64,000 nt of DNA from assembly GCA_043823065.1 (NCBI GenBank), contig JBDRBB010000008.1, positions 93,643-157,642 on the forward strand, written 5' to 3'. Made by a program: the position numbers and the translations under genes. This document shows positions 813-57,752 of the stretch, piece after piece. This DNA comes from Pseudomonadota bacterium (GTDB taxonomy: Bacteria; UBA10199; 2-02-FULL-44-16; DYJF01). The stretch's first letter is position 1. Each line of letters opens with the position of its first letter. The notes under the pieces are model-generated. The model was given only the letters and a program-made list of their open reading frames with translations. It did no database searches and was not told the origin of the DNA.

Positions 813-834
813 TAAAAATGGCAAATCAAATAAT

Positions 835-870
835 GTCATTCTGAGGCGAAGTTGAAGGGCTCAGAATGAC
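835..870. repeat. REP-like hairpin, TGTCAT...ATGACA family (perfect 11-bp stem gtcattctgag/ctcagaatgac)
   Basis: Seen directly. Shares the TGTCAT/ATGACAA termini with the copies at 1589, 25036 and 52299. It sits in the leader of the next gene. Confidence 0.5.
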
Positions 871-889
871 AAACCATAAAGGGGGAGAT

Positions 890-1588: not shown

Positions 1589-1627
1589 TTGTCATCGCGA
1601 GGAGCCTATGCTCCTCGCAATGACAAA
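1589..1627. repeat. REP-like hairpin (17-bp stem ttgtcatcgcgaggagc/gctcctcgcaatgacaa), probable bidirectional terminator
   Basis: Lies between convergent genes and overlaps the last 5 codons plus the stop of the ABC-F gene. Same TGTCAT...ATGACAA termini as the other copies. Confidence 0.5.
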
Positions 1628-24880: not shown

Positions 24881-24904
24881 AGTAATTAATTATTGCTAAA
24901 GAAG

Positions 24905-24929
24905 AAAAAGGGGTGAAAACCCCTTTTTC
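24905..24929 (-). terminator. Terminator for tRNA-Leu (stem aaaaagggg/cccctttt)
   Basis: Hairpin plus T-run on the minus strand, 8 nt after the tRNA 3' end. Confidence 0.5.
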
Positions 24930-24936
24930 TTCTTTG

Positions 24937-25018
24937 TGCCCAGGGCGGGATTTGAACCCGCAAGGGTTACCCCATACGCCCCTCAAACGTACGTGTATGC
25001 CAATTCCACCACCTGGGC
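24937..25018 (-). tRNA. tRNA-Leu (anticodon GAG), long variable arm
   Basis: Acceptor GCCCAGG/CCTGGGC. Anticodon loop TTGAGGG. Variable arm TGGGGTAACCCTT. T-arm GCGGGTTCAAATCCCGC. Confidence 0.85.
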
Positions 25019-25035
25019 AGATGCTGCTACATTAG

Positions 25036-25060
25036 ATTCCCGCTTTCGCGGGAATGACAA
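25036..25060. repeat. REP-like hairpin, single-ended copy (minus-strand TTGTCATTCCCGCGAAAGCGGGAAT)
   Basis: Almost identical to 52299..52327. Lies between the secG stop and tRNA-Leu. Confidence 0.5.
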
Positions 25061-25408
25061 CTATTTTGAATCTTGCTTCTTGGGCTCATCTGCTTTTTTC
25101 TCTGTAGTTGTCGCAGGTACCGCTTCTTCAGTTGTCTGCTCCGCAGCTACTGGTGTTGTATCCATTACCGAAGTAATGGATTTAGTCCTGGCAATGTGGG
25201 CCAACCAAATTGAGGTTACCAAAAAAGTAAACGCAACAATTACGGTGAGCTTGTTTAAAAAAGTAGCTGGGCCGCGACTTCCAAAAACAGTTTGTGAACC
25301 ACCACCAAATACCGCGCCAATATCAGCTCCTTTGCCTGCTTGCAAAAGAATGGTGATGATTAAAAAAATGCAGATTACATAATGTAAACCTAATAAAATT
25401 GATTCCAT
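25061..25408 (-). CDS. secG: Preprotein translocase subunit SecG
   Basis: LLQAGKGADIGAVFGGGSQTVFGSRG pattern with two TM segments. Conserved tpiA-secG gene order. Confidence 0.8.
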   Translation of the reverse strand: MESILLGLHYVICIFLIITILLQAGKGADIGAVFGGGSQTVFGSRGPATFLNKLTVIVAFTFLVTSIWLAHIARTKSITSVMDTTPVAAEQTTEEAVPATTTEKKADEPKKQDSK

Positions 25409-28463: not shown

Positions 28464-30920
28464 GTGTTCTTAAAAATTACTATGTTACTGCCAAAAATCG
28501 TAAAATTTGTAGTGCAAAAAGTGGTTCGTTACTATCTGGTGGTTTTATTATTAGCAGGTCTATTAACTGCTGTGTGTTTTCCGCGTGCCTCTAAATTTTT
28601 TGCTAATATTAATACTGACTTAACCAAGTTAATACCCGAACACTACAAAAGCGTTGAGTCGATAACTGAAATTCGGGAAAAGTTCAAGTCAATTAAGACA
28701 GCTATTTTAGTGGTAGAAGATGAGAATCCCCAGGTTGCCCAAGACCTAATGGCCAATCTGGCGACTTTTTTGGAAAAAGATCCCATAATCGATGAGGTAG
28801 AATATAAAAAGCGTGGCTACCAGTTTTTTGAAGATCATGTGCTTTTGTTCTTAGAATTAGAGGACTTAGAAACTATTCGGGATAGAATAGACCGCCGTAT
28901 TCAGCAGGAAAAGCTGGGCAGTTTGTATATAGATTTCGAGGATAATGGTGAAGATGAAGAGTTTAAGTTTGGAGACATAGAAAGTAAGTATAAGAGCAAA
29001 TATAGCTCAGGCTCCACAAGCCCCTATTATGCCAATGATCAGGAAACTGTGTATGCCATGTATATTTATCCGCTAAAGGATCCTGAGGAGATTACAGATA
29101 GCAAGAAATTCTATGAAAATTTACAGCAAAAGGTTGCCCAGTTTTTTAAGGAAAATAAATATCCAAGTTCAAAAATCTATTTTACAGGAACAATTCGCAC
29201 CCATGTTGATGAGTATGACACGCTTATTCATGATTTGAAAAAAGCAGGTTTAATTTCAGGGTTGGGCATTTTTTTGATTCTTTCCCTGTATTTTAGACGA
29301 GTCATAACTGTGGGGTTATTGTTTTTGCCAATTTCCATGGCAATTTTGATTACTTTTGCTTTTAGTTCTTTGTTTATTGAAAATCTTAATTTAGTTACTT
29401 CGTTTTTGTTTGCCATTCTGGGAGGTTTGGGTGTTGAAATTGGCATTCATTTTTTGTCGCGCTATATAGAAGAGCGACGAATTGGCAAAGATATCAACCA
29501 GGCGCTATTTGCTGTTTTGTATCATACTGGCGGTTCTGCCTTAACTTCAGCAGTTTCAGTGGCAGCTACGTTTTTAATTTTAATGGTCAATGATTTTAAG
29601 GGATTTTCCGAATTTGGCTTTATTGCTGGTTTTGGTTTAATTATGAATTATCTTTGTTATGTTTTGGTGTTTCCTTCATTGCTGGTATTGGCAGAAAAAC
29701 TGCATTTATTAAGATTTAAGCGAAGTATTGGTTTGGAGTTTGATCAAACTCAGATTACTTCTCAGTATATATTAGAACATCCCAAGCGTTTTCCAGTGCC
29801 TAAATTTGTTTTGGTTTGTTTAAGTGTTTTTGCCATTATTTCCATTATTGATTTACCCAGCCTGGAATTTGAATGGCGGTTTTCCAAAATCAAATCCAAT
29901 ATTCCAGCATCTTTGGAGGCAAGAGAAAAACAACGTTTAACCAGTAAAAGTGTTAATTCGCCAGCTATCGTAATTTTAAAAAATAAGGAACAAGCTCAGG
30001 CAATTAAGCAAGCTGTAAAAAAATTGCAAGAAAATCCTGGTTCTTCGGTTAATGACTTCAAGTCGTATTATGATTTAATGCCTGATGATCAAATGGCTAA
30101 GCTGGAAGTTATTGGGCAGATGCACAAGCTTTTGGAAGACGATACCTTAAAATTGGTTAAGGGCGAGCACAAAGAAGATATTGAAAGGTTTAAAGATGTG
30201 TTGGCCAAGATGAACCCTATTAATGAAGAAGATATTCCGCCCAAGATTAAAGAAATTTTTCAGGGCAATGTAAAAGGAGATACAGCTCAAATTGGTTATA
30301 TTAATCCCTTGCCGCTTTTGGAAATGGATGATGGCCGCAATGCTATTCGCTTTGCTAAGGAAATTCAACAAATAGAAACACCGCAAGGAACTTTTTATCC
30401 TTCTAATAATGCCATTGTTTTTGCAGATGTGCTGCGCACCATGATGAAAGATTCAAAAAGGGTAATTATCATGGCCTTTGGCATTGTGTTTTTGATTGTG
30501 TTATTAGATTTTCGTAGTGTTAAAGCCACCTGCTTAGTGCTTTCGCCAATTGTTTTAGGTGTGCTTTTCTTAAGCGGTTTTATGTACATCTTAAAACTCA
30601 AACTCAATTTCTATAATATGATTGCAGCACCCATTGTGGTTGGAACCAGCATAGATAATTCTGTGCATTTGTATCATCGGTATAAAGAAATGGGTAAGGG
30701 TTCTTTGATTTATGCCCTGCGTTCTACAGGTGGAGCAGCTTTTATGAGTTCCATGACCAATATTTGCGGGTTTTTAGGTTTGGTGTTTGCTTTTCATAAT
30801 GGTTTGCAATCTATTGGTGATTTGGCAGTGACTGGAATGGTAGCGTGCCTGATAACCACTTTGGTTTTCTTCCCGGCGTTGTTGCAGGTTATAGAGGATA
30901 GAAAGGTAAAGAAGATATGA
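28464..30920 (+). CDS. MMPL/RND-superfamily exporter (COG1033 type)
   Basis: Two 6-TM bundles, each preceded by a large extracytoplasmic domain. 818 aa. Confidence 0.7.
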   Translation: MFLKITMLLPKIVKFVVQKVVRYYLVVLLLAGLLTAVCFPRASKFFANINTDLTKLIPEHYKSVESITEIREKFKSIKTAILVVEDENPQVAQDLMANLATFLEKDPIIDEVEYKKRGYQFFEDHVLLFLELEDLETIRDRIDRRIQQEKLGSLYIDFEDNGEDEEFKFGDIESKYKSKYSSGSTSPYYANDQETVYAMYIYPLKDPEEITDSKKFYENLQQKVAQFFKENKYPSSKIYFTGTIRTHVDEYDTLIHDLKKAGLISGLGIFLILSLYFRRVITVGLLFLPISMAILITFAFSSLFIENLNLVTSFLFAILGGLGVEIGIHFLSRYIEERRIGKDINQALFAVLYHTGGSALTSAVSVAATFLILMVNDFKGFSEFGFIAGFGLIMNYLCYVLVFPSLLVLAEKLHLLRFKRSIGLEFDQTQITSQYILEHPKRFPVPKFVLVCLSVFAIISIIDLPSLEFEWRFSKIKSNIPASLEAREKQRLTSKSVNSPAIVILKNKEQAQAIKQAVKKLQENPGSSVNDFKSYYDLMPDDQMAKLEVIGQMHKLLEDDTLKLVKGEHKEDIERFKDVLAKMNPINEEDIPPKIKEIFQGNVKGDTAQIGYINPLPLLEMDDGRNAIRFAKEIQQIETPQGTFYPSNNAIVFADVLRTMMKDSKRVIIMAFGIVFLIVLLDFRSVKATCLVLSPIVLGVLFLSGFMYILKLKLNFYNMIAAPIVVGTSIDNSVHLYHRYKEMGKGSLIYALRSTGGAAFMSSMTNICGFLGLVFAFHNGLQSIGDLAVTGMVACLITTLVFFPALLQVIEDRKVKKI

Positions 30921-30924
30921 AATT

Positions 30925-31058
30925 CTAATATCTAATATCTAAATCCTAAACAAATTCTAATATTCAAAATTCAAATATTCGAAACAAAGTGTTTTGGATT
31001 TTGGTCATTATGATTTAGATATTGTTTAGAGTTTAGAAATTAGGGTTTAGGGTTTGCA
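30925..31058. repeat. AT-rich imperfect inverted repeat of degenerate heptamers (CTAAAYC-like arm versus GTTTAGR/GGGTTTA arm) in the mnmE leader
   Basis: Exact 11-bp inverted pair atatctaaatc (30935-30945) and gatttagatat (31012-31022), plus flanking degenerate heptamer repeats. Confidence 0.35.
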
Positions 31059-31064
31059 TTAATT

Positions 31065-32435
31065 ATGAATAACAAAGACACAATTTGCGCTATCGTAACT
31101 CCTCCTGGCACAGGCGGTGTAGGCATAGTACGTATTAGCGGTGGGAAGGCTCAAGAAGTTTTGCAAAAAATTTGGCAAGGAAAAGTCAAAGTTGCTAACT
31201 TTGAATCCCACAAAATGCATTTAGGTCATATCCAGGATCCACAATCCAAAAACCCGGTGGATAATGTTTTAGTAGTAATCATGCGTGCCCCGCATTCTTA
31301 TACAGGAGAAGATGTAGTGGAAATCTCTGGCCATGGCGGGCAGATGCTTTTGGGCAGGATCTTGGCTAGCTGTCAAAAAGCAGGAGCACGTTTAGCCCAG
31401 CCCGGCGAGTTTACCAGACGGGCGTTTTTAAATGGCAAAATGGATCTGGCTCAAGCTGAAGCAGTTGCAGATTTGATTGCTGCTAATAATGAATCTGCCG
31501 CGCGTTTGGCGTTAAATCAATTAGAAGGAAAATTATCTGAAACAATTTCAAGCTTGCAAGAAGGGCTAACTAATTTGCGAGCCTTTGTAGAAGCAGCCAT
31601 AGATTTTCCAGAAGAAGATATTGAGTTTATCAAAAAAGAAGGTGTGGCAGAAAAGTTAAAAGTTATAGCAAGTAAGCTGCAAACATTGATTAGCACTTAT
31701 GCAGACGGCCGTCTTTTGAAAGACGGAGTAAAAGTGGCGATCATTGGCAAACCAAATGTAGGTAAATCAAGTTTGTTTAATAAGTTGGTTGGTAGTGCGC
31801 GAGCAATTGTGCACTACAGCCCAGGCACAACTCGTGATTTAGTTTCAGAAACCATTCAGTTGGAAGGGGTTGCTTTTCATCTAATTGATGCAGCAGGAAT
31901 TAGAGATGAGGGACATGAAGTAGAGATGATTGGCATTGAGCTGGCTCGCGAACAAGTTAAAAAAGCAGATCTAATCATCAGGGTGGTTGATGAGCCCAAA
32001 GTTGAGGAATTAAAAGGACTTGATCTGCAAAAGACAATTTTGTGTTTAAATAAAATTGATCTATTAACTTCGGAGCAAAAAACTTCTTATTTAAAAAACT
32101 TGGGTACGGATTGGTATGCAGTGGTTTCAGTTTCAGCTTTAGAGGGAAAAGGTTTATCAGATCTGCAAAAAGCTTTGTCTTTATTTGCGGTTTCAGGGAA
32201 GAACAAAGGTAGCCAAGAAGGCGTGGTCATTACTTCTGCCAGGCATAAGCAAGCTTTAAAAGAAGCTGTTGTTAATATTAGCGAGGCCATCAAGGCAGTA
32301 AAGGAAAACAGTTCAGCAGAATTCATTGCTGAACATCTCACCCAAGCCAGTGGGGCTCTGGGCCAAATCATTGGCCAAGTTAGCACTGATGACATCTTAA
32401 ACCAAATCTTCTCCAAATTTTGCATAGGGAAATAA
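31065..32435 (+). CDS. mnmE: tRNA modification GTPase MnmE
   Basis: G1 motif GKPNVGKSSLFN. C-terminal CIGK motif. Confidence 0.92.
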   Translation: MNNKDTICAIVTPPGTGGVGIVRISGGKAQEVLQKIWQGKVKVANFESHKMHLGHIQDPQSKNPVDNVLVVIMRAPHSYTGEDVVEISGHGGQMLLGRILASCQKAGARLAQPGEFTRRAFLNGKMDLAQAEAVADLIAANNESAARLALNQLEGKLSETISSLQEGLTNLRAFVEAAIDFPEEDIEFIKKEGVAEKLKVIASKLQTLISTYADGRLLKDGVKVAIIGKPNVGKSSLFNKLVGSARAIVHYSPGTTRDLVSETIQLEGVAFHLIDAAGIRDEGHEVEMIGIELAREQVKKADLIIRVVDEPKVEELKGLDLQKTILCLNKIDLLTSEQKTSYLKNLGTDWYAVVSVSALEGKGLSDLQKALSLFAVSGKNKGSQEGVVITSARHKQALKEAVVNISEAIKAVKENSSAEFIAEHLTQASGALGQIIGQVSTDDILNQIFSKFCIGK

Positions 32436-32439
32436 ACCC

Positions 32440-33521
32440 TTGTTATTCCCGCGGAAAAACCAGACGGACCAAAATTGGACAGTTGGTGCATCAAAACGCT
32501 ACACCTGTTAGCAACTGAGTCGGTGCAAAAGCCCTATTTTACGCACTTTTTATTTTGGCACGAGGTTTGCTTTATATTTTAGCATGCCCTACTTACCTAG
32601 ATACTTTATTATCTGCGATGACTCCTACTTCCATGTGACTTGGCAATGCCACAACCAAGATTGGCTTCTAAAATGGGATTGGGCCAAGGAAATCTATTAT
32701 AATCTCCTGCGTAAATATAAAGATAAGTATGGAGTAGAAATCTATGCTTATAACTTTATGGATAATCACCCGCACCTTGCTGGTCACTTAAGATCTAAAG
32801 ATGAATTTTCTGCCTTTTTTCGCCTAGTTAATGGTTTATTTGCCAAAGCTGTTAACAAACGCCTTAACAGAAAAGGTCAGGTCATTATGGATAGATTCAA
32901 ATCTCCTAGAATTGAATCTGATAATCATTTGATAAATGTCATGACTTATATTGATCTAAATCAGCAACGAGTAGGCAAAGTAGATCATCCAAAGCAAAAT
33001 ACATGGTCATCTTATAGGTACTATGCATATGGCCAAAAAGATTCTCTGATTACCCCTTCACCTTCATATTTACTATTAGGAAGAACACCAACAGAGAGGC
33101 AAAATGAATATAGGAGATTAGTTGAGGGATTAATTGGAAATGACAAAGAAATAAATATATCTAAAACCTATTTCATAGGAAACCCAGATTGGGTAATTGC
33201 CAGATACAAAGAGTATAGAATTTTGTGGAAGACTGTCTATATCAAGCAAGGCCTATCCAATGCTAATTCTCCGCCAGGATAGCAAAAAAAGCAAGCAAGC
33301 GTGCAGTTTAATTTGAGAAATTAAGGATTTGATTGTAGAGCTGTATCCAAATTTAGCCAAATTCAAAAAAAATACCAAAATACAAATCGACAAGCGAAAA
33401 TTTAGTTTTGCAAGAGAGGTTTGCAAGTTTCAGATATTTGTAAATTGCCAATCAAATACAAAGTTGAGCAACTTTTATTCAAAAACTAATCAATAAGTAA
33501 AAATTGGTCCGTCTGAGTTTC
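32440..33521 (+). mobile_element. IS200-like / RAYT-like element: HuH transposase gene flanked by 12-bp inverted repeats, with a REP half-site at the left end
   Basis: Left end has TGTTATTCCCGCGG, a REP-like half hairpin. Inverted repeats are cagacggaccaa (32461-32472) and ttggtccgtctg (33505-33516). Confidence 0.4.
32584..33282 (+). CDS. HuH Y1 transposase-like protein (IS200/Transposase_17 fold; REP-associated tyrosine transposase-like)
   Basis: HuH motif MDNHPHLAGHL. YIDLNQQRV (similar to the YIxxNPV motif) and a Tyr-rich region SSYRYYAY. 232 aa. Confidence 0.55.
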   Translation: MPYLPRYFIICDDSYFHVTWQCHNQDWLLKWDWAKEIYYNLLRKYKDKYGVEIYAYNFMDNHPHLAGHLRSKDEFSAFFRLVNGLFAKAVNKRLNRKGQVIMDRFKSPRIESDNHLINVMTYIDLNQQRVGKVDHPKQNTWSSYRYYAYGQKDSLITPSPSYLLLGRTPTERQNEYRRLVEGLIGNDKEINISKTYFIGNPDWVIARYKEYRILWKTVYIKQGLSNANSPPG

Positions 33522-33648
33522 GAGAGCTTCCAAAATTTTTGACGCATGAAGAAATTTTGGATTTAACGAAGCAATGCTCGTCCGTCCAGCTAATTAAAGG
33601 ACAGAATTCCAGGGGCATGATACTTAATAGGCTATCTGATGATTTTAT

Positions 33649-34140
33649 TTATGACTTCATGTTTACGTACTGAAGCGGGATTTTATAGTCTTTGGAATTC
33701 AGGGTTTGAATAACCTTCTGAAGATCATCTATTTTTTTGCCAGTAACGCGTACCTGTTCATCCTGAATTGCAGCCTGAACCTTTAGGTTTAAATCTTTGA
33801 TTGTTTTCACAAGCTCGCGGGCAATATCCTTGGATATTCCCTCATTGATTTTAATGGTTCTTTTTAGCAGCCCTTGCGAGGTTGGTTCGATTTTTTTGAA
33901 TTCCAGGCACCTTGGATCTACTTTTCTTCTTACGCAATTCGCGCGAATCATTTCTTCAAGTAACTTCATCTTCATCTCGTCAGAGGTGGTAATCTGCAGA
34001 GACTTCTCTTTTTTATCCAGATTTATAGATGTTTTCGAATTCTTAAAATCATATCTGGTTGTTACTTCGCGAGATGTATTATTAACCACGTTGTCCATTT
34101 CAGCTAGATCAACTTTATTTACAATATCAAATGACGGCAT
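33649..34140 (-). CDS. yajQ: YajQ-family nucleotide (c-di-GMP)-binding protein, UPF0234
   Basis: N-terminus MPSFDIVNKVDLAEMDNVVNNTSREVTTRYDFKNS matches the YajQ pattern. 163 aa. Confidence 0.85.
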   Translation of the reverse strand: MPSFDIVNKVDLAEMDNVVNNTSREVTTRYDFKNSKTSINLDKKEKSLQITTSDEMKMKLLEEMIRANCVRRKVDPRCLEFKKIEPTSQGLLKRTIKINEGISKDIARELVKTIKDLNLKVQAAIQDEQVRVTGKKIDDLQKVIQTLNSKDYKIPLQYVNMKS

Positions 34141-34295
34141 ATTAGCTCCTTTTTTGTTAAACCTTTTATCAAACCTTGTCTTAACTAACTCATCTATGCC
34201 TTTTTTGGCCAGAAAAAAACGATTTTAGGATATTAAGCAAATTGACAAATATTTCAGTTTATAGGCGTATTTCTGTGGATTGAAGGGAGGGGTCT

Positions 34296-34772
34296 ATGCC
34301 ATTTGTTCAGGTATACCAAGGCTTGCGGTCTAATGGAGTAACTGCTGCTGAGATGAACCAACTTACCCAGGCTGTGGCAGAAGCAGAAGGAATTATCAGA
34401 AATGAAAATGGAGAAGTGATTAACGCTACTGCAGATACTTTAGATCTGTTTATGGCCATAAACAGAGATATAAGATCTTTTGCTTATAACCGTCCAGAAT
34501 TTGAAGAACAAGCCCTTGGTAATTTTCAAAATTTTTTTTCAGGGGTAGATCAATTTCTACAACATAGATGCCAGGCCATTGGCAGCCAGCATTGGCAGCA
34601 TGCGGCTGGTTTAACCTTTGCTGGCGGAATTAGTGTTAGCATAGGAGCCGTTCTGCTCTTGCCTGGCTGGCTAAAGTTAATAGCTATAATTCCTGGAGTA
34701 GTTACTATTGGCGCGGGTCTGTATCATCAGCATGTGCATTATAATATTTTGCCAGAATATTGCCGGTATTGA
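34296..34772 (+). CDS. Hypothetical protein with a C-terminal TM hairpin
   Basis: ORF with a plausible start. No recognised motifs. Confidence 0.35.
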   Translation: MPFVQVYQGLRSNGVTAAEMNQLTQAVAEAEGIIRNENGEVINATADTLDLFMAINRDIRSFAYNRPEFEEQALGNFQNFFSGVDQFLQHRCQAIGSQHWQHAAGLTFAGGISVSIGAVLLLPGWLKLIAIIPGVVTIGAGLYHQHVHYNILPEYCRY

Positions 34773-34773
34773 T

Positions 34774-37287
34774 TTAAAAATATAAAATCAATTCCAATAT
34801 TTCATTATCAGCAACTTTGATGTTGATCCATTTTTTGAGCAGCACGCTTGCTTCAGGATCAACATAGCCAGCTTCCAAATAATAATCTCCTGGTTCTATT
34901 TCATAAATTTGCCAATCATCACCGGTTTCGCCAAGGATAAGCTCACGATCAGAACCATATTCAAATACCTTAAATTTACAATTAATAATGATATTATTTG
35001 AACCTCGACCAATGATTTTGAGCTTGCCAGTGGTAAAAATGCTTTCTTGGCTAATCAATTTGCCGTTTTTTATTTCAATGTCTTTTAACCAATTGGTGGT
35101 TTCAATCTTATCTTTGGTTTCTGCATTTATTGCCTTGGCGTTATAAAACCCTTGAGGAAGTTCAAATACCACCCAATCGCTTGATGCGTTTGCTGTGCCA
35201 AAGGGTTCATCCAGGCCTGCCCGATAAATCATAAATTCTGTTTCAATTGGTTGTTCTTTGGAATTAATGCCGCGCACACGCAAAGTGCCATAACTAAACT
35301 GAGCTACCTTTTCCACCGGTTTGGTGGCATCAATGCGCACATTGGGAATTAATGTTGTTGGTTTGGGCGTAGTTAAAATATTTTTTGAAGCCAGGATTTC
35401 GTATGTGTCTGGTGGAACAGGTACTGTAATGGTTTTGTCTGTTGCCACAAATTTTACTTTAGCAATAGATTCGGCTTTGGGCATCAGGCGAATATCAAAC
35501 TCAGCATCAGTTAATTTGCCTTCTGTATCTACGGCAGACAAGGTTAACAACCCCATTTCAAATGAAGCTAAGACTTCTGTGATTTCTGAAGCTTTCACAG
35601 ATACAGCATTGGCTTTGGAGCGCGGACTAATAATCATTTGAGGATCCTGACCAATAAAGACAATATCGTAATTTCCAGGAGCTACATTAACGGTGCCGCC
35701 GGATTTGGTTAAGGCGCCGCTAACATAAATCTGGTCTGGTTTTTCTGTTTTATAGATTTGATAGATAAACGGTATTTCTGTTTTTTGGGAAGTGATTCCT
35801 TCTAGTTTTAAAGTGCCTTCTTGAAATAAATATTTAACCAAGGTGCTTTCGCCTGTTTTAATGTCCACTCCAGATTCGGTTAAACGAATTCTTTCTGGAA
35901 TTGCCCCTTCTTGTTCAGAAGTGATGTCATATTGTCCTGGAGGTAAATAAATTTGTTGGGGGTGATCAGTTATTCTGGCTTCAGCAATAATTTCTGGTTG
36001 GCCTTTTTTGCGAATTTCAAAACGGGCCGGGCTGGGGTTGCCTGTAGCATCTATGGCAGCCAAGGTTATAGCGCCTAAGTCAAAATTTATTTTTTGTTCA
36101 ACTTTAGTTTTTTCTAAAATTTCTACACCTTTAATGATTTTAGATGGTTTTTTAAATTCAGGTGAAGCTGTGTATTCCACCATAATATCGTAAGTTCCAG
36201 GAGCCAAGCTTAACAGCTTGGTGCCAAAGCTGGTTTCAGTTTTAACCACTTCATTGGTCTGGCTCTTGTAAACAGTTAGGGTAACAGGAATGGGTGTGGC
36301 GCCAATAACTGTATTTAAGCGCAAATTATAAGGCAGCTTAGAGCTTACTGCTTCATCCAAAGATTTTCTGAGTTCTTCCTCATTGCGAGCTAAATAGAAT
36401 TTGCCATCAGAATTTTTGGCAATGCAGCTGAGTTTTTCTTGATCTGCGCTACTAATATCAAATCCAATCACTTGAATTGAAGTTCTAGGGTTTTGGGTGT
36501 GAATGGTTTGAGCTATCTGGCAAGGATCAGCTTGGCAAGTGTCAGAGCCATCAGTTATTAGCACAATGATTTGGTCAACGTCAGTCATAGCAGGAAAATC
36601 ATTGCTAGCAGCTTCTAGGCTCGCAGCTATTGGGCTTTCCCCCTGAGCGGTCAAAGGCAGAACAACTTCTTTGATTTTATCTAAATTTGGCTGGCTCACT
36701 GGATATAGTTGTCGCATATCTGCACAATCGCGATCATTTAATGATGTTTGCGAGCCAAAGGTTCTAATGCCTACATTACGCGGAAACTCAGTATCTTTTA
36801 AGGATAACATTACTTCAAACAAGGCCTTTTTTTGCAGGTCCAGTTTACTCTGAGTTGTGATGCCATAAATTGCACTTTGGCTGCCAGATGCATCTAAAAT
36901 AATATTGATGTTGGTTTTGGCATCCACCAGCTTAGGTGCAAAAGGCACTTCAGGGAATTGTTTTTTGCCAACTTCTTCAATAACCGGGGTGGGTATGTCA
37001 GCAGCGCCCAGGTTGGCTAGGGTTTCTGGCTCGGTTGGCGCTGCTTTTTGCTCCGTCTGAGTAGGTTCTGTTTGCTCCGTCTGAGTAGGTTCTACAGGTT
37101 CAGGAGCTGGTTCTATGGTCTTGGGACCTGGTAGCTCAATCTTCTTGCTTTGAGTTGTGCCAGATTGGGCAGGTTTTTGTTTTTCTTTGTTTTTACAGCT
37201 TGTTAAGCTACCCAGACTAAAACAAATAGCTAGGCAGATTACAAAAATAAGATAGTTTAATTTTCGCATAATTTGAATATTTACCAT
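34774..37287 (-). CDS. Large secreted lipoprotein with a von Willebrand factor A domain and repeated beta-sandwich domains
   Basis: Lipobox LTSCKNK. Pro/Thr/Glu linker with a tandem 24-nt repeat (TEPTQTEQ x2). VWA MIDAS-like motifs (ILDASGS, LITDGSDTC). Confidence 0.7.
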   Translation of the reverse strand: MVNIQIMRKLNYLIFVICLAICFSLGSLTSCKNKEKQKPAQSGTTQSKKIELPGPKTIEPAPEPVEPTQTEQTEPTQTEQKAAPTEPETLANLGAADIPTPVIEEVGKKQFPEVPFAPKLVDAKTNINIILDASGSQSAIYGITTQSKLDLQKKALFEVMLSLKDTEFPRNVGIRTFGSQTSLNDRDCADMRQLYPVSQPNLDKIKEVVLPLTAQGESPIAASLEAASNDFPAMTDVDQIIVLITDGSDTCQADPCQIAQTIHTQNPRTSIQVIGFDISSADQEKLSCIAKNSDGKFYLARNEEELRKSLDEAVSSKLPYNLRLNTVIGATPIPVTLTVYKSQTNEVVKTETSFGTKLLSLAPGTYDIMVEYTASPEFKKPSKIIKGVEILEKTKVEQKINFDLGAITLAAIDATGNPSPARFEIRKKGQPEIIAEARITDHPQQIYLPPGQYDITSEQEGAIPERIRLTESGVDIKTGESTLVKYLFQEGTLKLEGITSQKTEIPFIYQIYKTEKPDQIYVSGALTKSGGTVNVAPGNYDIVFIGQDPQMIISPRSKANAVSVKASEITEVLASFEMGLLTLSAVDTEGKLTDAEFDIRLMPKAESIAKVKFVATDKTITVPVPPDTYEILASKNILTTPKPTTLIPNVRIDATKPVEKVAQFSYGTLRVRGINSKEQPIETEFMIYRAGLDEPFGTANASSDWVVFELPQGFYNAKAINAETKDKIETTNWLKDIEIKNGKLISQESIFTTGKLKIIGRGSNNIIINCKFKVFEYGSDRELILGETGDDWQIYEIEPGDYYLEAGYVDPEASVLLKKWINIKVADNEILELILYF

Positions 37288-51247: not shown

Positions 51248-52285
51248 ATGGGTGTAAGAAAGTTTTTTAGGCGTTTAGTGTTAACAGTTTTTCTGCTTTG
51301 TTTAATTGCTGCTGGTTTTCTAGGTTGGTCTTTTTATGCAGCTATTTATAAATGGACCTCGCCTATTAAAGCAATTGTGGAAATTGAGCCTGGTTCTTCA
51401 GTGCAAACCATTGCGCTTAAATTGGCTGCCAACAAAGTGCTTAATACCCCCAAAATTTTTACTGCTTATGTTCGGCTGGCCGGTAAATCAGGAAAGCTTA
51501 AAGCTGGAGAATATGAATTCCCGGCAGGACTGACTGCTCATGAAGTTTTACAAAAAATTCTCAAAGGAGATGTAATACATTATGAGCTGCAGATTATTGA
51601 AGGCTGGTCTGTTGCTGATATTGCTGATTATTTAGCAAAGCAGCCAATCATTACTGACCCCCAGTTTGCGGCAGATTTTAAACGTTTGGCTAAAAGTAAA
51701 GAGGGGTATATGTTTCCCGATACCTATCGAATTTTACGTCCCAAAAGCGCGCAAGATTTGATTGATCGTTTTGAAGCCAGATTCAACGAGGTCTATTCTC
51801 CAGAGATTGCAGCTGTTGCTAAAGATCAAGGTTTGAGCAAGCAAGAAGTAATTACCCTGGCATCTATTGTGGAAAAGGAAACTGGCCTGGCTGATGAACG
51901 GCCAGTAATTGCTTCAGTATTTCTAAATCGTTTAAAAAATAATATTGCCCTGCAAAGCGACCCTACGGTGATTTATGGTTTGTCAAATTTTGACGGTAAT
52001 TTGCGCAAACAAGATTTAGCTAACCCTCATCCTTATAATACCTATGTGCATGCTGGTTTGCCGCCTGGGCCGATTTGTAATCCAGGCCAGGCTTCTATTG
52101 AAGCAGTTTTGTATCCAGCCCAAACCCATTATCTATATTTTGTTTCCAAAAATGACGGCAGTCATGAATTTTCCAGAACCTTGGAAGAACACAACCGGGC
52201 AGTGCAGAAATATCAAATGCGGAGAAACGTCAGCAATAATCCACCTAAATCATTACCAGCACCAAAAATAATACCCCAAAGGTAG
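51248..52285 (+). CDS. mltG: Endolytic murein transglycosylase MltG (YceG family)
   Basis: N-terminal TM. Motifs YEFPAGLT, LASIVEKE and LQSDPTVIYG. Confidence 0.9.
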   Translation: MGVRKFFRRLVLTVFLLCLIAAGFLGWSFYAAIYKWTSPIKAIVEIEPGSSVQTIALKLAANKVLNTPKIFTAYVRLAGKSGKLKAGEYEFPAGLTAHEVLQKILKGDVIHYELQIIEGWSVADIADYLAKQPIITDPQFAADFKRLAKSKEGYMFPDTYRILRPKSAQDLIDRFEARFNEVYSPEIAAVAKDQGLSKQEVITLASIVEKETGLADERPVIASVFLNRLKNNIALQSDPTVIYGLSNFDGNLRKQDLANPHPYNTYVHAGLPPGPICNPGQASIEAVLYPAQTHYLYFVSKNDGSHEFSRTLEEHNRAVQKYQMRRNVSNNPPKSLPAPKIIPQR

Positions 52286-52298
52286 TTTTCCACTATGT

Positions 52299-52375
52299 TT
52301 TGTCATTCCCGCGAAGGCGGGAATCTAGCCTGTTATAACGGACTGGATCCCCACTTTCGTGGGGATGACAAACCT
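52299..52375. repeat. Compound REP-like element: outer TGTCAT...ATGACAA ends enclosing two hairpins (attcccgc/gcgggaat and atccccac/gtggggat)
   Basis: First hairpin is near-identical to 25036..25060. Same termini as the 835 and 1589 copies. Confidence 0.5.
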
Positions 52376-52597
52376 TTGGCGACAGGCTCTTTGATAGTCT
52401 TCGAGCGAAGCAAAGCGGAGTCGAGAAGCACAATTTGGACTTCGGAAACAGCCTCTATCTAGGCTGCTGTTATGGCTCGTTCGCACGCCGCTCAACAACA
52501 CTTCCCAGCGCAACTAACCAAACATAAATTTCGCAGTCTAATAACTTCTACGCTATTTTCTGACCGACAATTTTTGAGGAGGCCAATATGTTGTCTA

Positions 52598-53729: not shown

Positions 53730-54109
53730 TATACTAGTTCAGAAATGCTGATATTACAATATATCAATTGGCAATCCGTCATTCCCTTTGCCTTGAAAAA
53801 AGTGCATGGGGTCCTGAGGTGACAGAGCAGTCTGATGTTATGGGGTATTGCTCTCGTGGCTCTCGGCCGACTTTTTTTATTTCCCTACAACCATTCCGGT
53901 GTATTCCTGTTTTTTTGTTATATCGGGAAAGTAAAAAAAGCCGCCCTACGCCACTAGCGCAATACCCAAAGTATCTACATATTCTGTAAGCGCGCGCCTA
54001 AATTGCTTCAAACACCTCACCTCCTGCAGGGATTTTGGATAAGCAATTAAGTAGATGTCCCCGGAATTCTTTGATGTTGCTTAGTTGCATATGATATTCA
54101 ACGTCATTG

Positions 54110-55192: not shown

Positions 55193-55972
55193 ATGAATGC
55201 AACTGTATTAACAATTGCAGGTTCAGACCCTTCTGGTGGAGCTGGAGTGCAGGCTGATCTCCAGACATTTGGAGATCTAGAAGTTTCAGCTATCTCAGCA
55301 GTAACTGCTATTACAGCTCAAAATGATCAAGAGGTTTTGGCAATTCATCCCACGCCAGCAGATGTTTTAACTCAACAACTATCCACAGCCTTAAAAGGCA
55401 AAAAAGTGGAAGTGGTAAAAATTGGCATGGTGGCAACGTTAAGCAATGTGCGCGCCATAGCCTGGTTTTTGAAGCATACTTCATTTAAACAAGTTGTGCT
55501 TGATCCTGTTTTACATTCTTCAACTGGAATACCGCTTTTGGAAACCAAAGCGCTCAGCATTTTTCGTCAGCAGCTAATGCCTTTGGCAACTGTGATTACC
55601 CCTAATTTACCTGAAGCACAAGTGCTGGCTGGTATGCAAGTAACCTCTTTGGAAACAATGAAAAAAGCAGCTGAAGTTATTCATTTAGATGCTTTTAAAT
55701 TGCGAGCTGGTATAAATAAGCCACTTTATGTGTTAATTAAAGGAGGTCATCTAAAAGGAGACGCAGCTGATGTTCTTTATAATGGCGAAAAATTTGAAAT
55801 TTTTTCAGCAAAAAGAATTTCAGGTCCATCCCCTCGGGGTACTGGCTGCCGTTTTTCAGCAGCCATTGCTGCAGGCCTGGCCAAAGGAGAGCAATTAGAA
55901 GTTGCCATTAAGAATGCAAAAACATATTTAGAGAGTTATATTGCAGGAGAAAAATCTAAAAAGCATAATTGA
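55193..55972 (+). CDS. thiD: Hydroxymethylpyrimidine / phosphomethylpyrimidine kinase
   Basis: VLTIAGSDPSGGAGVQADL N-terminal signature. GTGCRFSAAIAAGLA. Confidence 0.9.
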   Translation: MNATVLTIAGSDPSGGAGVQADLQTFGDLEVSAISAVTAITAQNDQEVLAIHPTPADVLTQQLSTALKGKKVEVVKIGMVATLSNVRAIAWFLKHTSFKQVVLDPVLHSSTGIPLLETKALSIFRQQLMPLATVITPNLPEAQVLAGMQVTSLETMKKAAEVIHLDAFKLRAGINKPLYVLIKGGHLKGDAADVLYNGEKFEIFSAKRISGPSPRGTGCRFSAAIAAGLAKGEQLEVAIKNAKTYLESYIAGEKSKKHN

Positions 55973-56035
55973 CCATTGACTATAGACCATTGACCTTTTT
56001 CCGTTTTAGGTCAATTGTCTATGGTCAATAGTCGA
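55968..56035. promoter_or_regulatory. Large palindrome with four TTGACC/GGTCAA-type half-sites and a T-rich loop (terminator and/or operator)
   Basis: Arms ttgaccattgactatagaccattgacc and ggtcaattgtctatggtcaatagtcga, about 22/27 complementary. Loop tttttccgttttag, followed by TTTTATT. Confidence 0.4.
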
Positions 56036-56042
56036 TTTTATT

Positions 56043-57752
56043 ATGGGCGAGTTAATCCTTAATGACATTTTAGTGATTGTTATCATAGCCATCCCTGTTG
56101 TGCTAATTGCCCATCGTCTAAACTTGCCGCCCATTGTTGGTTTTTTGCTCACTGGAATTATTATTGGTCCAGAGGGTATTGGTTTTGTCAGAGATGCTCA
56201 GCGCATTGAGCTGTTAGCTGAAGTAGGTGTGGCGCTTTTACTATTTCATATTGGTTTAGAATTCTCAGTTAGTAATTTGCGAGGTTTAAAAAGAATTGTT
56301 TTAGGCGGAGGCCTTCTTCAGGTCTCCTTCACTATTATAGCCGGAACTTTTTTTGGTGTTTTGTTGGGTTGGCATTTAACCCGCAGCATCTTTTTTGGCT
56401 GTGCTGCAGCCTTGTCCAGCACAGCTATTACCTTAAGTTTTCTTTCCCATCGTCGACGCCTAGATTCCCCTGCTGGTAGAATAACCACTGGCATTTTGAT
56501 CTTACAAGATTTGGCAATTGTACCCATGCTGGTTTTTTTGCCTTTGATTGCTGCCACCGACCTTAGCGCAGAATTAAATTGGACCTTATTATTGCCTTTT
56601 TTAAAAATAATTTTGGTTTTTGGAGTGCTCTGGATATTTTACTATTATGTTTTAGATCTATTGTTGCACCAAGTAGCTCGGGTAGGCAGCAAAGAATTGT
56701 TTGTAATAATTTTAATCGGCATGGCCATTGGTTTTGCTTGGTTTACTAAACAGCTAGGTCTTTCTTTTGCTTTGGGTGCGTTTTTAGGTGGGTTGATGAT
56801 TTCTGCCACTCCGTTTCGTTTTCATGCGCTTTCGGAAATTGCTCCTTTTAGAGCCCTGGTTAGCGGAGTATTTTTTGTTTCTGTGGGTATGTTGATCTCG
56901 CCTTCTTTTGTAATTAATCATTTGGGCCAAGTTACCGCAATTGTTTTGTTTATTGTGGTGGCTAAGACTTTGTTGACTACTGCTTCAATAATGATCTTTC
57001 GTTATCCTCTAACAATTGCCCTGGTGGTAGGCATGCTTTTAGGACAAATGGGAGAGTTTTCTTTTGTGCTGATGCAGGCTGGTTTTAAGTCAGGTATTAT
57101 TAAGAGCGAATTATTTAATCTTTTAATTGCCGCCAGTGGTTTGAGTATTGTGATTGCTCCCATCATGATGGAGCTTTCAGCTTATGTTTGTGTGATTAAA
57201 GATAAATTTTTTTCCCGCTTGCCACAAGAGAGTCCTAGAGCAGAGCCTTTCCAAGAGCCTGGTTCAGAAGAATTGGAAAATCATGCGATAATTTGTGGAT
57301 TTGGACCTTTGGGGGAAACTATTGGCCAGTTGCTGGAAAAAAGCGGGATGCATTATGTGGTGTTGGAGTTAAATCCCATGACTGCCAAGAAATTGATTAG
57401 CGCCAAGAAGAAGGCTTATGTTGGGGATGGAGCCAGTGCTGAACTTTTGTCTCACTCTAGAATTGAAAAAGCCAAAATGTTAGCTATTGCTGTTCCAGAC
57501 TACATCAATGGCCTGGCTATTGTCAGGCAGGCCAGAAGGCTAAATTCCCAAATTACTATTGTAGCCAGATCCAGATATCGCGATCAAGTTAGCGATTTTT
57601 ATGAGGTTGGCGCAGATATAGTGATTTGCGAAGAACTTGAAGCTGGTATTGAAATGGGGCGTCATGTTTTGTTGCAGCTAGGGGTGGAAGAAGAAACAGC
57701 TAACCAGTTTATTAGCGAGATCAGATCCTTTGGAAGTGCTGATTTTTTCTAG
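56043..57752 (+). CDS. CPA2-family cation:proton antiporter with a C-terminal RCK/TrkA-N domain (KefB/KefC-like)
   Basis: About 12 TM helices. Rossmann motif IICGFGPLGETIG in the C-terminal domain. Confidence 0.8.
   Translation: MGELILNDILVIVIIAIPVVLIAHRLNLPPIVGFLLTGIIIGPEGIGFVRDAQRIELLAEVGVALLLFHIGLEFSVSNLRGLKRIVLGGGLLQVSFTIIAGTFFGVLLGWHLTRSIFFGCAAALSSTAITLSFLSHRRRLDSPAGRITTGILILQDLAIVPMLVFLPLIAATDLSAELNWTLLLPFLKIILVFGVLWIFYYYVLDLLLHQVARVGSKELFVIILIGMAIGFAWFTKQLGLSFALGAFLGGLMISATPFRFHALSEIAPFRALVSGVFFVSVGMLISPSFVINHLGQVTAIVLFIVVAKTLLTTASIMIFRYPLTIALVVGMLLGQMGEFSFVLMQAGFKSGIIKSELFNLLIAASGLSIVIAPIMMELSAYVCVIKDKFFSRLPQESPRAEPFQEPGSEELENHAIICGFGPLGETIGQLLEKSGMHYVVLELNPMTAKKLISAKKKAYVGDGASAELLSHSRIEKAKMLAIAVPDYINGLAIVRQARRLNSQITIVARSRYRDQVSDFYEVGADIVICEELEAGIEMGRHVLLQLGVEEETANQFISEIRSFGSADFF

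Follow-up and report, generated by a model that had tools for sequence, protein, structure and literature searches.

Three NTS/SRM repeats of the kind targeted by Ssn nucleases and two palindromes related to a second class among the GTCAT-framed hairpins of an uncultured, low-G+C bacterial lineage

Short palindromes that recur between genes with common outer ends raise the question of what kind of repeat they represent and which enzyme they belong with. This question arose from four sites in a 64-kb stretch of DNA (hereafter the window, i.e. the whole stretch analysed, with a G+C content of ~ 40%), which the initial annotation had described as one family of REP/BIME-type elements sharing the inverted ends TTGTCAT/ATGACAA and accompanied by a RAYT-like HuH transposase. 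A hairpin scan of the window resolved the four sites into five short intergenic DNA hairpins (Table 1). Folded as single-stranded DNA, all four sites reached -8.8 to -20.3 kcal/mol (z = -4.5 to -10), and none of 200 shuffles folded as strongly. The window contains 40 perfect hairpins of at least 8 bp, five of which carry GTCAT at the base of the stem. Counted by strand, GTCAT leads directly into a perfect stem of 8 bp or longer 5 times, against a mean expectation of 0.03 (maximum 1) in 300 first-order Markov randomisations. The hairpins are genuine and well in excess of chance, and the enrichment proposed for their shared ends was borne out. The other strong hairpins of the window (4429, 22216, 24898 and 49344) are ordinary A/T-flanked terminators.

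Table 1. The GTCAT-framed hairpins of the 64-kb window, with their scores against the covariance model R1 described in the text.
Feature	Position	Strand	Sequence	R1 score	Context
Perfect palindrome	834..871	both strands (GTCAT + stem)	TGTCATTCTGAG-(14 nt)-CTCAGAATGACA		unknown ORF (stop 812) upstream; RBS/start of MscS-like gene (probable start 890) downstream
17-bp palindrome, one mismatch, 4-nt loop	1589..1626	both strands	TTGTCATCGCGAGGAGC-ctat-GCTCCTCGCaATGACAA		between convergent MscS-like and ABC-F genes
NTS/SRM-type hairpin	25028..25064	-	5'-TTGTC ATTCCCGC gaaa GCGGGAAT C TAATG-3'	41.2 bits, E = 1e-10	begins directly after secG stop codon; ends 10 nt before tRNA-Leu(GAG)
NTS/SRM-type hairpin, left half of doublet	52296..52332	+	TGTC ATTCCCGC gaag GCGGGAAT C TAG	48.6 bits, E = 4e-13	11 nt past mltG stop codon
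NTS/SRM-type hairpin, variant stem, right half of doublet	52339..52375	-	TTTGTC ATCCCCAC gaaa GTGGGGAT C CAG	42.2 bits	doublet in convergent spacer downstream of mltG

Judged from their sequences, the five hairpins split into two classes with only the (T)TGTCAT frame common to both. The outer ends attributed to all four sites hold for three of them, since TGTCAT...ATGACA pairs at most 120 nt apart occur exactly three times in the window (834-871, 1590-1625 and 52301-52370), while the copy at 25036 shows ATGACAA only on the + strand and is a single oriented element of the - strand, TTGTCATTCCCGCGAAAGCGGGAATC. Read on the + strand, this copy (25036-25055) is ATTCCCGC-tttc-GCGGGAAT, followed by GACAA, and the doublet (52299-52372) is made of ATTCCCGC-gaag-GCGGGAAT and ATCCCCAC-tttc-GTGGGGAT. 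The near-identity noted between 25036 and 52299 thus applies to their cores (ATTCCCGC/GCGGGAAT), which are identical but lie on opposite strands and enclose different loops. The two hairpins reported within the 52299 element are both present; the right half is inverted relative to the left, with the GTC ends pointing outward (tail-to-tail), and its core (52345-52372, - strand) is a stem variant set in the same frame as the other NTS copies. GTC directly 5' and C directly 3' of the palindrome are found in all three of these hairpins. The palindromes at 834-871 and 1589-1626, the latter reading TTGTCATTGCGAGGAGC-atag-GCTCCTCGCGATGACAA on the - strand, present GTC on both strands, but have G where the 3' C of the NTS stands.

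Searching the literature by sequence brought up Chenal et al. 2025 (PMC11893778), who describe the Neisseria Transformation Sequence (NTS), CGTCATTCCCGCGMAVGCGGGAATCYRG, which takes in the older dRS3 repeat, and a degenerate Ssn-related motif (SRM), HGTCWYN(0-2)YYVSBRHN(0-5)WNVSBRGN(0-2)RNCYNB. SsnA, a GIY-YIG protein of 94 aa with a single domain, binds the hairpin when it is single-stranded DNA and in no other form, and its cut falls a few nucleotides upstream; cleavage depends critically on the GTC 5' of the palindrome and binding on the C 3' of it, and ssn genes are typically bracketed by the motif (PMC11893778). Taking CGTCATTCCCGCGMAVGCGGGAATCYRG with at most 1 mismatch, or the SRM string, as the mark of NTS membership, the hairpin at 52301-52328 (+) is the sole exact SRM match in the window (0.13 expected) and differs from the NTS consensus at one position. 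The hairpin at 25033-25060 (-) has two mismatches to the consensus, at its first and last bases, and fails the SRM string at the last base only. Altogether, the 64-kb window holds three NTS-type copies, where 0.13 SRM matches are expected.

Furthermore, 31 hairpins located next to Ssn-like genes of viral contigs, none of them from the window, served to train a covariance model (R1). Its strong matches in the window number exactly three (41-49 bits) and are followed, at 11.9 bits, by bare palindromes on the wrong strand; on the 12 NTS copies around a gonococcal ssnA homologue, the model scored 35-53 bits. Because R1 was trained without the window's hairpins and nevertheless scores them at 41-49 bits, the copies at 25028-25064 (-), 52296-52332 (+) and 52339-52375 (-) are placed in the NTS/SRM family by sequence and structure together. 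Stems that covary between the same conserved flanks (GTC...C) are found in different phyla. Neither R1 nor the SRM string detects 834-871 or 1589-1626, and the single family of four initially proposed gives way to two classes, one of which comprises the three hairpins found by R1. As a separate observation, the interval 52279-52338, which overlaps an NTS hairpin, gave a sub-threshold Rfam match to the Francisella sRNA FtrB (24 bits vs 66), and the FtrB family model itself may include an NTS-like hairpin.

The genes that accompany such hairpins in other contigs point to a partner. An exact-pattern scan of viral contigs with the window's NTS variant yielded 73 loci. Among loci picked by this variant alone, Ssn-like genes occur in two sets: 4 of the 73 viral loci, where profile searches placed a GIY-YIG ORF (PF01541) within 50 bp of the match, and at least four metagenome loci (four with Ssn-like ORFs, two of them strong, in a set of at least 80 NTS-selected loci); five of these Ssn-like genes lie within 50 bp of a hairpin. 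In one metagenome locus (L154), the Ssn-like ORF begins a few nucleotides after the hairpin. One of the viral proteins is 59% identical to the product of a single N. gonorrhoeae locus, a 94-aa protein amid 12 NTS copies, which we take to be the SsnA orthologue. A second scan, using an alignment of three Ssn-like proteins as the query, provided 16 good loci, all 16 of which carry GTC-AT hairpins within 170 bp of the Ssn-like gene, typically with a + strand hairpin 18-34 bp upstream and a - strand hairpin 20-40 bp downstream. Of the 3 copies of the variant stem ATCCCCAC present in the fetched loci, 2 also have an Ssn-like gene no more than 300 bp away. The linkage of hairpins identical to those of the window with Ssn-like genes is thus a direct observation in other contigs. 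Y1 genes, for their part, were found in none of the 73 viral and at least 80 metagenome NTS-selected loci, nor in 118 loci selected by the second repeat class described below. With no Y1 gene in the hairpin-selected loci, and Ssn-like genes beside the hairpins in some of those selected by the NTS variant, this linkage suggests that the partner is Ssn and not a Y1 enzyme. Within the 64-kb window, neither a motif regex nor a check of every small ORF nor iterated profile searches (down to 40-aa stop-to-stop frames, E up to 1e-3) recovered an Ssn-like ORF, and we infer that an Ssn encoded elsewhere in this genome would act on the three NTS-type copies.

Taken together, the explanation that we favour, with a probability of roughly 0.7, is that the window carries five GTCAT-framed palindromes, three of them NTS/SRM elements, i.e. 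Ssn targets, and two of them relatives of a second class (hereafter GAG class) with a presumed nuclease partner. Each of the five consists of a conserved (T)TGTC, a stem starting with AT, a short loop and the complementary stem. In the NTS/SRM family, which was first seen in Neisseria as dRS3/NTS, the hairpin forms in single-stranded DNA, and the small single-domain GIY-YIG nuclease Ssn binds the palindrome plus the following C before cutting that strand a few nucleotides to the 5' side of the GTC. In N. meningitidis, Ssn cleavage trims incoming transforming DNA (PMC11893778). Members of the family build up between genes and around ssn, frequently in inverted pairs of the tail-to-tail kind, in a REP/REPIN-like manner.

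The arrangement and turnover of the NTS-type hairpins were followed through the fetched loci. Of 100 close pairs, 69 are tail-to-tail, 19 head-to-head and 12 tandem, with a modal spacer of ~ 22 nt, and the 52299 doublet of the window is of the modal tail-to-tail type. Such a doublet has the geometry of NTS-ssn-NTS minus the gene and is REPIN-like. According to crude ORF calls, hairpins are oriented 90 sense/58 antisense relative to flanking ORFs for the NTS type and 37 sense/62 antisense for the GAG class, a mild bias in both cases. The closest relative, GCA_054920855.1 (locus L231; TPI 90% identical, DNA ~ 78% identical), is syntenic with the window over 22.2-37.5 kb and allowed the spacer between secG and tRNA-Leu to be compared. 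This spacer is 17 nt long and empty in a distant relative (L234), 25 nt long with a short hairpin devoid of GTC in L233, 42 nt long with one NTS in the window, and 70 nt long with a tail-to-tail pair in L231/L232, where the ATTCCCGC copy has the orientation opposite to that of the window. Because relatives hold 0, 1 or 2 elements at this orthologous spacer, the repeats turn over: NTS elements are gained, lost and duplicated, and are not a conserved regulatory structure. In addition, ~ 100 kb from ABC-F relatives contained no perfect-stem GTCAT hairpin, one weak R1 match and four GAG-class copies. Comparison of orthologous sites via the ABC-F gene was set aside, its homologues being 66-74% identical with no conserved synteny, and only the C-terminus was usable. 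More broadly, several window proteins have their relatives in MAGs from groundwater and sediment, which carry the labels Deltaproteobacteria, Oligoflexia, Pseudobdellovibrionaceae or 'bacterium'.

The two remaining palindromes lead to the GAG class, defined as TGTCATTGCGAG-(variable inner hairpin)-CG(A/T/C)(A/G)GCAATC(T/C), with the minor forms ATTCTGAG...AGAATC and ATCCTGAG...GGATC; more loosely, it can be written TGTCATTGCGAG/TGTCATTCTGAG-(variable inner hairpin)-CGNR(GC/AG)AATC. Repeats of this class, GTCATTCTGAG...CGAAGAATC, occur in NTS-bearing contigs, and the arm of 834-871, GTCATTCTGAGG, corresponds to their 5' end. Likewise, GAG-class copies such as L195 have at their 5' end the 15 nt of the 1589-1626 arm, GTCATTGCGAGGAGC, so that the arms of the two window palindromes match the first 11-15 nt of the class. 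Canonical copies are asymmetric, with a 5-bp outer stem, an internal loop, a variable inner stem and an AATC end, whereas the window copies are palindromic and end in ATGAC. Only one other palindromised copy (L087/L088) was seen among about 250, and the exact 1589-type stem pattern gave no matches in viral contigs. Among the matches listed, at least 120 viral contigs contain the class; a single contig can hold as many as 15 copies, which are often located between genes for phage structural proteins. GAG copies also co-occur with NTS copies, at times 10 nt apart. Across the viral contigs L235-L352 (e.g. L273 2669-2856, L276, L247 and L300), they form tandem arrays with a spacing of ~ 40 nt or stand one per intergenic region.

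The SRM string fits none of 247 GAG-class copies. No Ssn-like or Y1 gene was found in the 118 GAG-selected loci (among the matches listed), and no Ssn-like gene lies within 300 bp of any of 42 GAG copies; the neighbours of the class in GAG-selected viral loci include no recurrent family and no gene bracketed by inverted copies. No relevant description of the class emerged from a sequence-based search of the literature. The palindromes at 834-871 and 1589-1626 are therefore best described, on the match of their arms, as palindromised relatives of a second, abundant and apparently undescribed class. Because they have the GTCAT frame, and nothing else, in common with the NTS type, we infer only tentatively that they could be cut in trans by the single-strand nuclease presumed for the NTS type or by a related one. 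That the GAG class as a whole is a very large family populating the intergenic DNA of many phage and bacterial contigs and serving as the substrate of a trans-acting single-strand nuclease, perhaps a divergent Ssn paralogue, and that the window palindromes would be cut on both strands, is possible but doubtful.

Among the alternatives, the one that survives best holds that the hairpins are primarily RNA-level signals, i.e. intrinsic terminators or 3'-end stabilisers for the genes upstream, and that the TGTCAT frame is incidental. REP-type hairpins stabilise mRNA 3' ends in E. coli, all five hairpins lie at gene ends, and on the - strand 1589-1626 is followed by a T-rich tail and is picked up by a terminator-like scan. 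However, a T tract accompanies only this one of the five hairpins, and the other four fail the terminator pattern (G+C-rich stem plus T tract). The secG/tRNA-Leu copy lies inside a probable co-transcript, with a real bidirectional terminator at 24898-24935, and the 834 copy precedes an RBS. Furthermore, a generic terminator needs neither GTC...C flanks nor stems that covary across phyla, the orientation to genes given above is mixed, and the hairpin is missing from the orthologous site in relatives. Nor is the RNA form of the hairpin a ligand of SsnA (PMC11893778). Scanned with Rfam, only two tRNAs reached the gathering score in the whole window, and permissive scans around the hairpins returned sub-threshold noise only. 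We consider this alternative unlikely.

Still less likely is a role in which a site-specific recombinase, or an element of the IS110/Piv type, uses the hairpins as attachment or target sites, in the manner of dRS3, which is reported as a target of the recombinase of a Neisseria filamentous prophage (as cited in PMC11893778). The NTS core of the window does hold a perfect dRS3 (ATTCCC-N8-GGGAAT), but no recombinase, IS110-family gene or prophage adjoins any of the five copies, and such a role would explain the use of the sites and not their origin or spread. It is also compatible with, and not exclusive of, the explanation that we favour.

The transposase that had suggested a REP/RAYT system is a Y1 (HuH) transposase-like gene at 32584-33282, with a weak match to PF01797 (Y1_Tnp, 35.5 bits) and a score of 45 bits against the NCBIfam model of REP-associated tyrosine transposases, whose cut-off is 80; a Y1 gene is thus present as announced, but falls short of a RAYT. 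A half-site, TTGTtATTCCCGCGG (13/14 nt), is found 130 nt upstream of it, and the general layout of the hairpins agrees with that of REPs, being extragenic palindromes at gene ends with an inverted doublet. Against this stand the lack of any GTCAT hairpin within 1 kb of the gene, which has its own flanking inverted repeat, CAGACGGACC, unrelated to the GTCAT hairpins, and the match of three copies to the Ssn-target NTS/SRM. In 13 homologous Y1 loci (49-80% identity), none has a GTCAT hairpin within about 1.5 kb, and a sigma-54-type promoter is conserved before the gene in 12-13 of 14 loci, as for a regulated single-copy gene. The reading of the hairpins as REP/BIME elements mobilised by this RAYT-like enzyme was consequently rejected on model score, flanks, the 13 homologous loci and ~ 270 hairpin-selected loci without Y1, and we hold it to be very improbable; what stands of it is the REP-like layout.

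Several features of the Y1 region deserve description in their own right. The promoter-like sequence TGGCACgaggtTTGCT lies ~ 15-30 nt before the Y1 start (window 32440-33520), its counterpart in the window and L001-L013 being TGGCA(C/T)-N5-TTGC(T/A), found in 12-13 of these 14 loci. The motif (C)AGACGGAG occurs in one to four copies 100-180 nt upstream of Y1 across loci, and the window has an inverted copy downstream of the gene as well (32456-32472 / 33504-33520). By these features, the Y1 gene looks like a regulated, single-copy, possibly domesticated gene with enhancer-like sites. From mnmE to a gene of 837 aa, the window (32434-34774, 2.3 kb) contains Y1, yajQ and a 158-aa ORF, and the same interval of L231 (2698-3616, 0.9 kb) contains DUF6868 and DUF3617 genes; the Y1 gene therefore sits in a variable segment.

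Three other repeat regions were noted along the window. An imperfect inverted repeat of 43 nt (53843-53967; 74% complementary, 39-nt spacer), without an Rfam match, occupies a 370-nt gene-free stretch between a Cu/Zn efflux gene and a 163-aa ORF. Reiterated TTGACCATTGAC/GGTCAAT units are located at 55957-56040, upstream of a gene at 56043, and TCTAA/TTAGA-rich repeats at 30920-31055, between an MMPL gene and mnmE. The last two regions may be operator or binding-site arrays.

The hairpins also leave their mark on coding sequences. As the initial annotation had observed, the hairpin at 1589-1626 overlaps the end of the ABC-F gene, of which it encodes the last six codons (LSLRGA) and the stop. 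The ABC-F protein ends in FDLSLRGA and nine homologues end in (H/Y)F(D/E)xLLxxx, LSLRGA standing in place of the conserved tail. Pseudo-peptides arise where hairpins lie in open frames: LSLRGA* at 1606-1626 (-), LDSRFRGNDN at 24900-25379 (+) and FCHSREGGN...DPHFRGDDK at 52286-52459 (+). LSLRGA is the real C-terminus of ABC-F, and the other hairpin peptides are likely sources of spurious ORF calls. For annotation, this means that such hairpins yield spurious peptides (LDSRFRGND, FCHSREGGN) and can rewrite real C-termini (ABC-F LSLRGA). Beyond annotation, NTS/SRM repeats, characterised in Neisseria and a few other Pseudomonadati, are now placed in an uncultured low-G+C 'Deltaproteobacteria'/Bdellovibrionota-like lineage, and one orthologous spacer shows cleanly how they are gained, lost and doubled. 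The GAG class, abundant in phage contigs and set in the GTCAT frame, is the more open lead, and its partner protein, once found, could extend the Ssn story and the toolbox of single-strand DNA nucleases.

Compared with known systems, the window's hairpins resemble the REP/BIME/REPIN elements of E. coli and Pseudomonas in being short extragenic palindromes at gene ends that probably accumulate in genomes, with an inverted doublet as the preferred unit and a conserved short motif 5' of the stem. They differ in that the REP motif is GTAG and its partner a Y1 HuH transposase flanked by REPs, whereas the motif is here GTCAT, the hairpins neither flank the Y1 gene nor correlate with it, and the gene linked elsewhere to window-type hairpins encodes a GIY-YIG nuclease. 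The 834 and 1589 palindromes agree with the GAG class (TGTCATTGCGAG...CGNRGCAATC) over their first 11-15 nt (GTCATTCTGAGG, GTCATTGCGAGGAGC) and in the GTCAT frame, but canonical copies are asymmetric with an AATC end and the window copies palindromic with an ATGAC end; the class itself falls outside the published definition of the SRM. The NTS/SRM system differs from the situation described here in its hosts, Neisseria or an alphaproteobacterium instead of an uncultured ~ 40% G+C 'Deltaproteobacteria'/Bdellovibrionota-like lineage, in its published start, CGTC instead of the TTGTC of the window variant, and in its ssn gene, which is absent from the 64-kb window; the 834 and 1589 hairpins, moreover, lie outside the published motif. 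The likeness, finally, is close for the copies at 25028, 52296 and 52339, which share the 28-nt layout GTC, ATTCCCGC-N4-GCGGGAAT, C, are hairpin-forming, intergenic and often paired, with 1-2 mismatches to the consensus, and have identical counterparts that flank Ssn-like GIY-YIG genes in other contigs.
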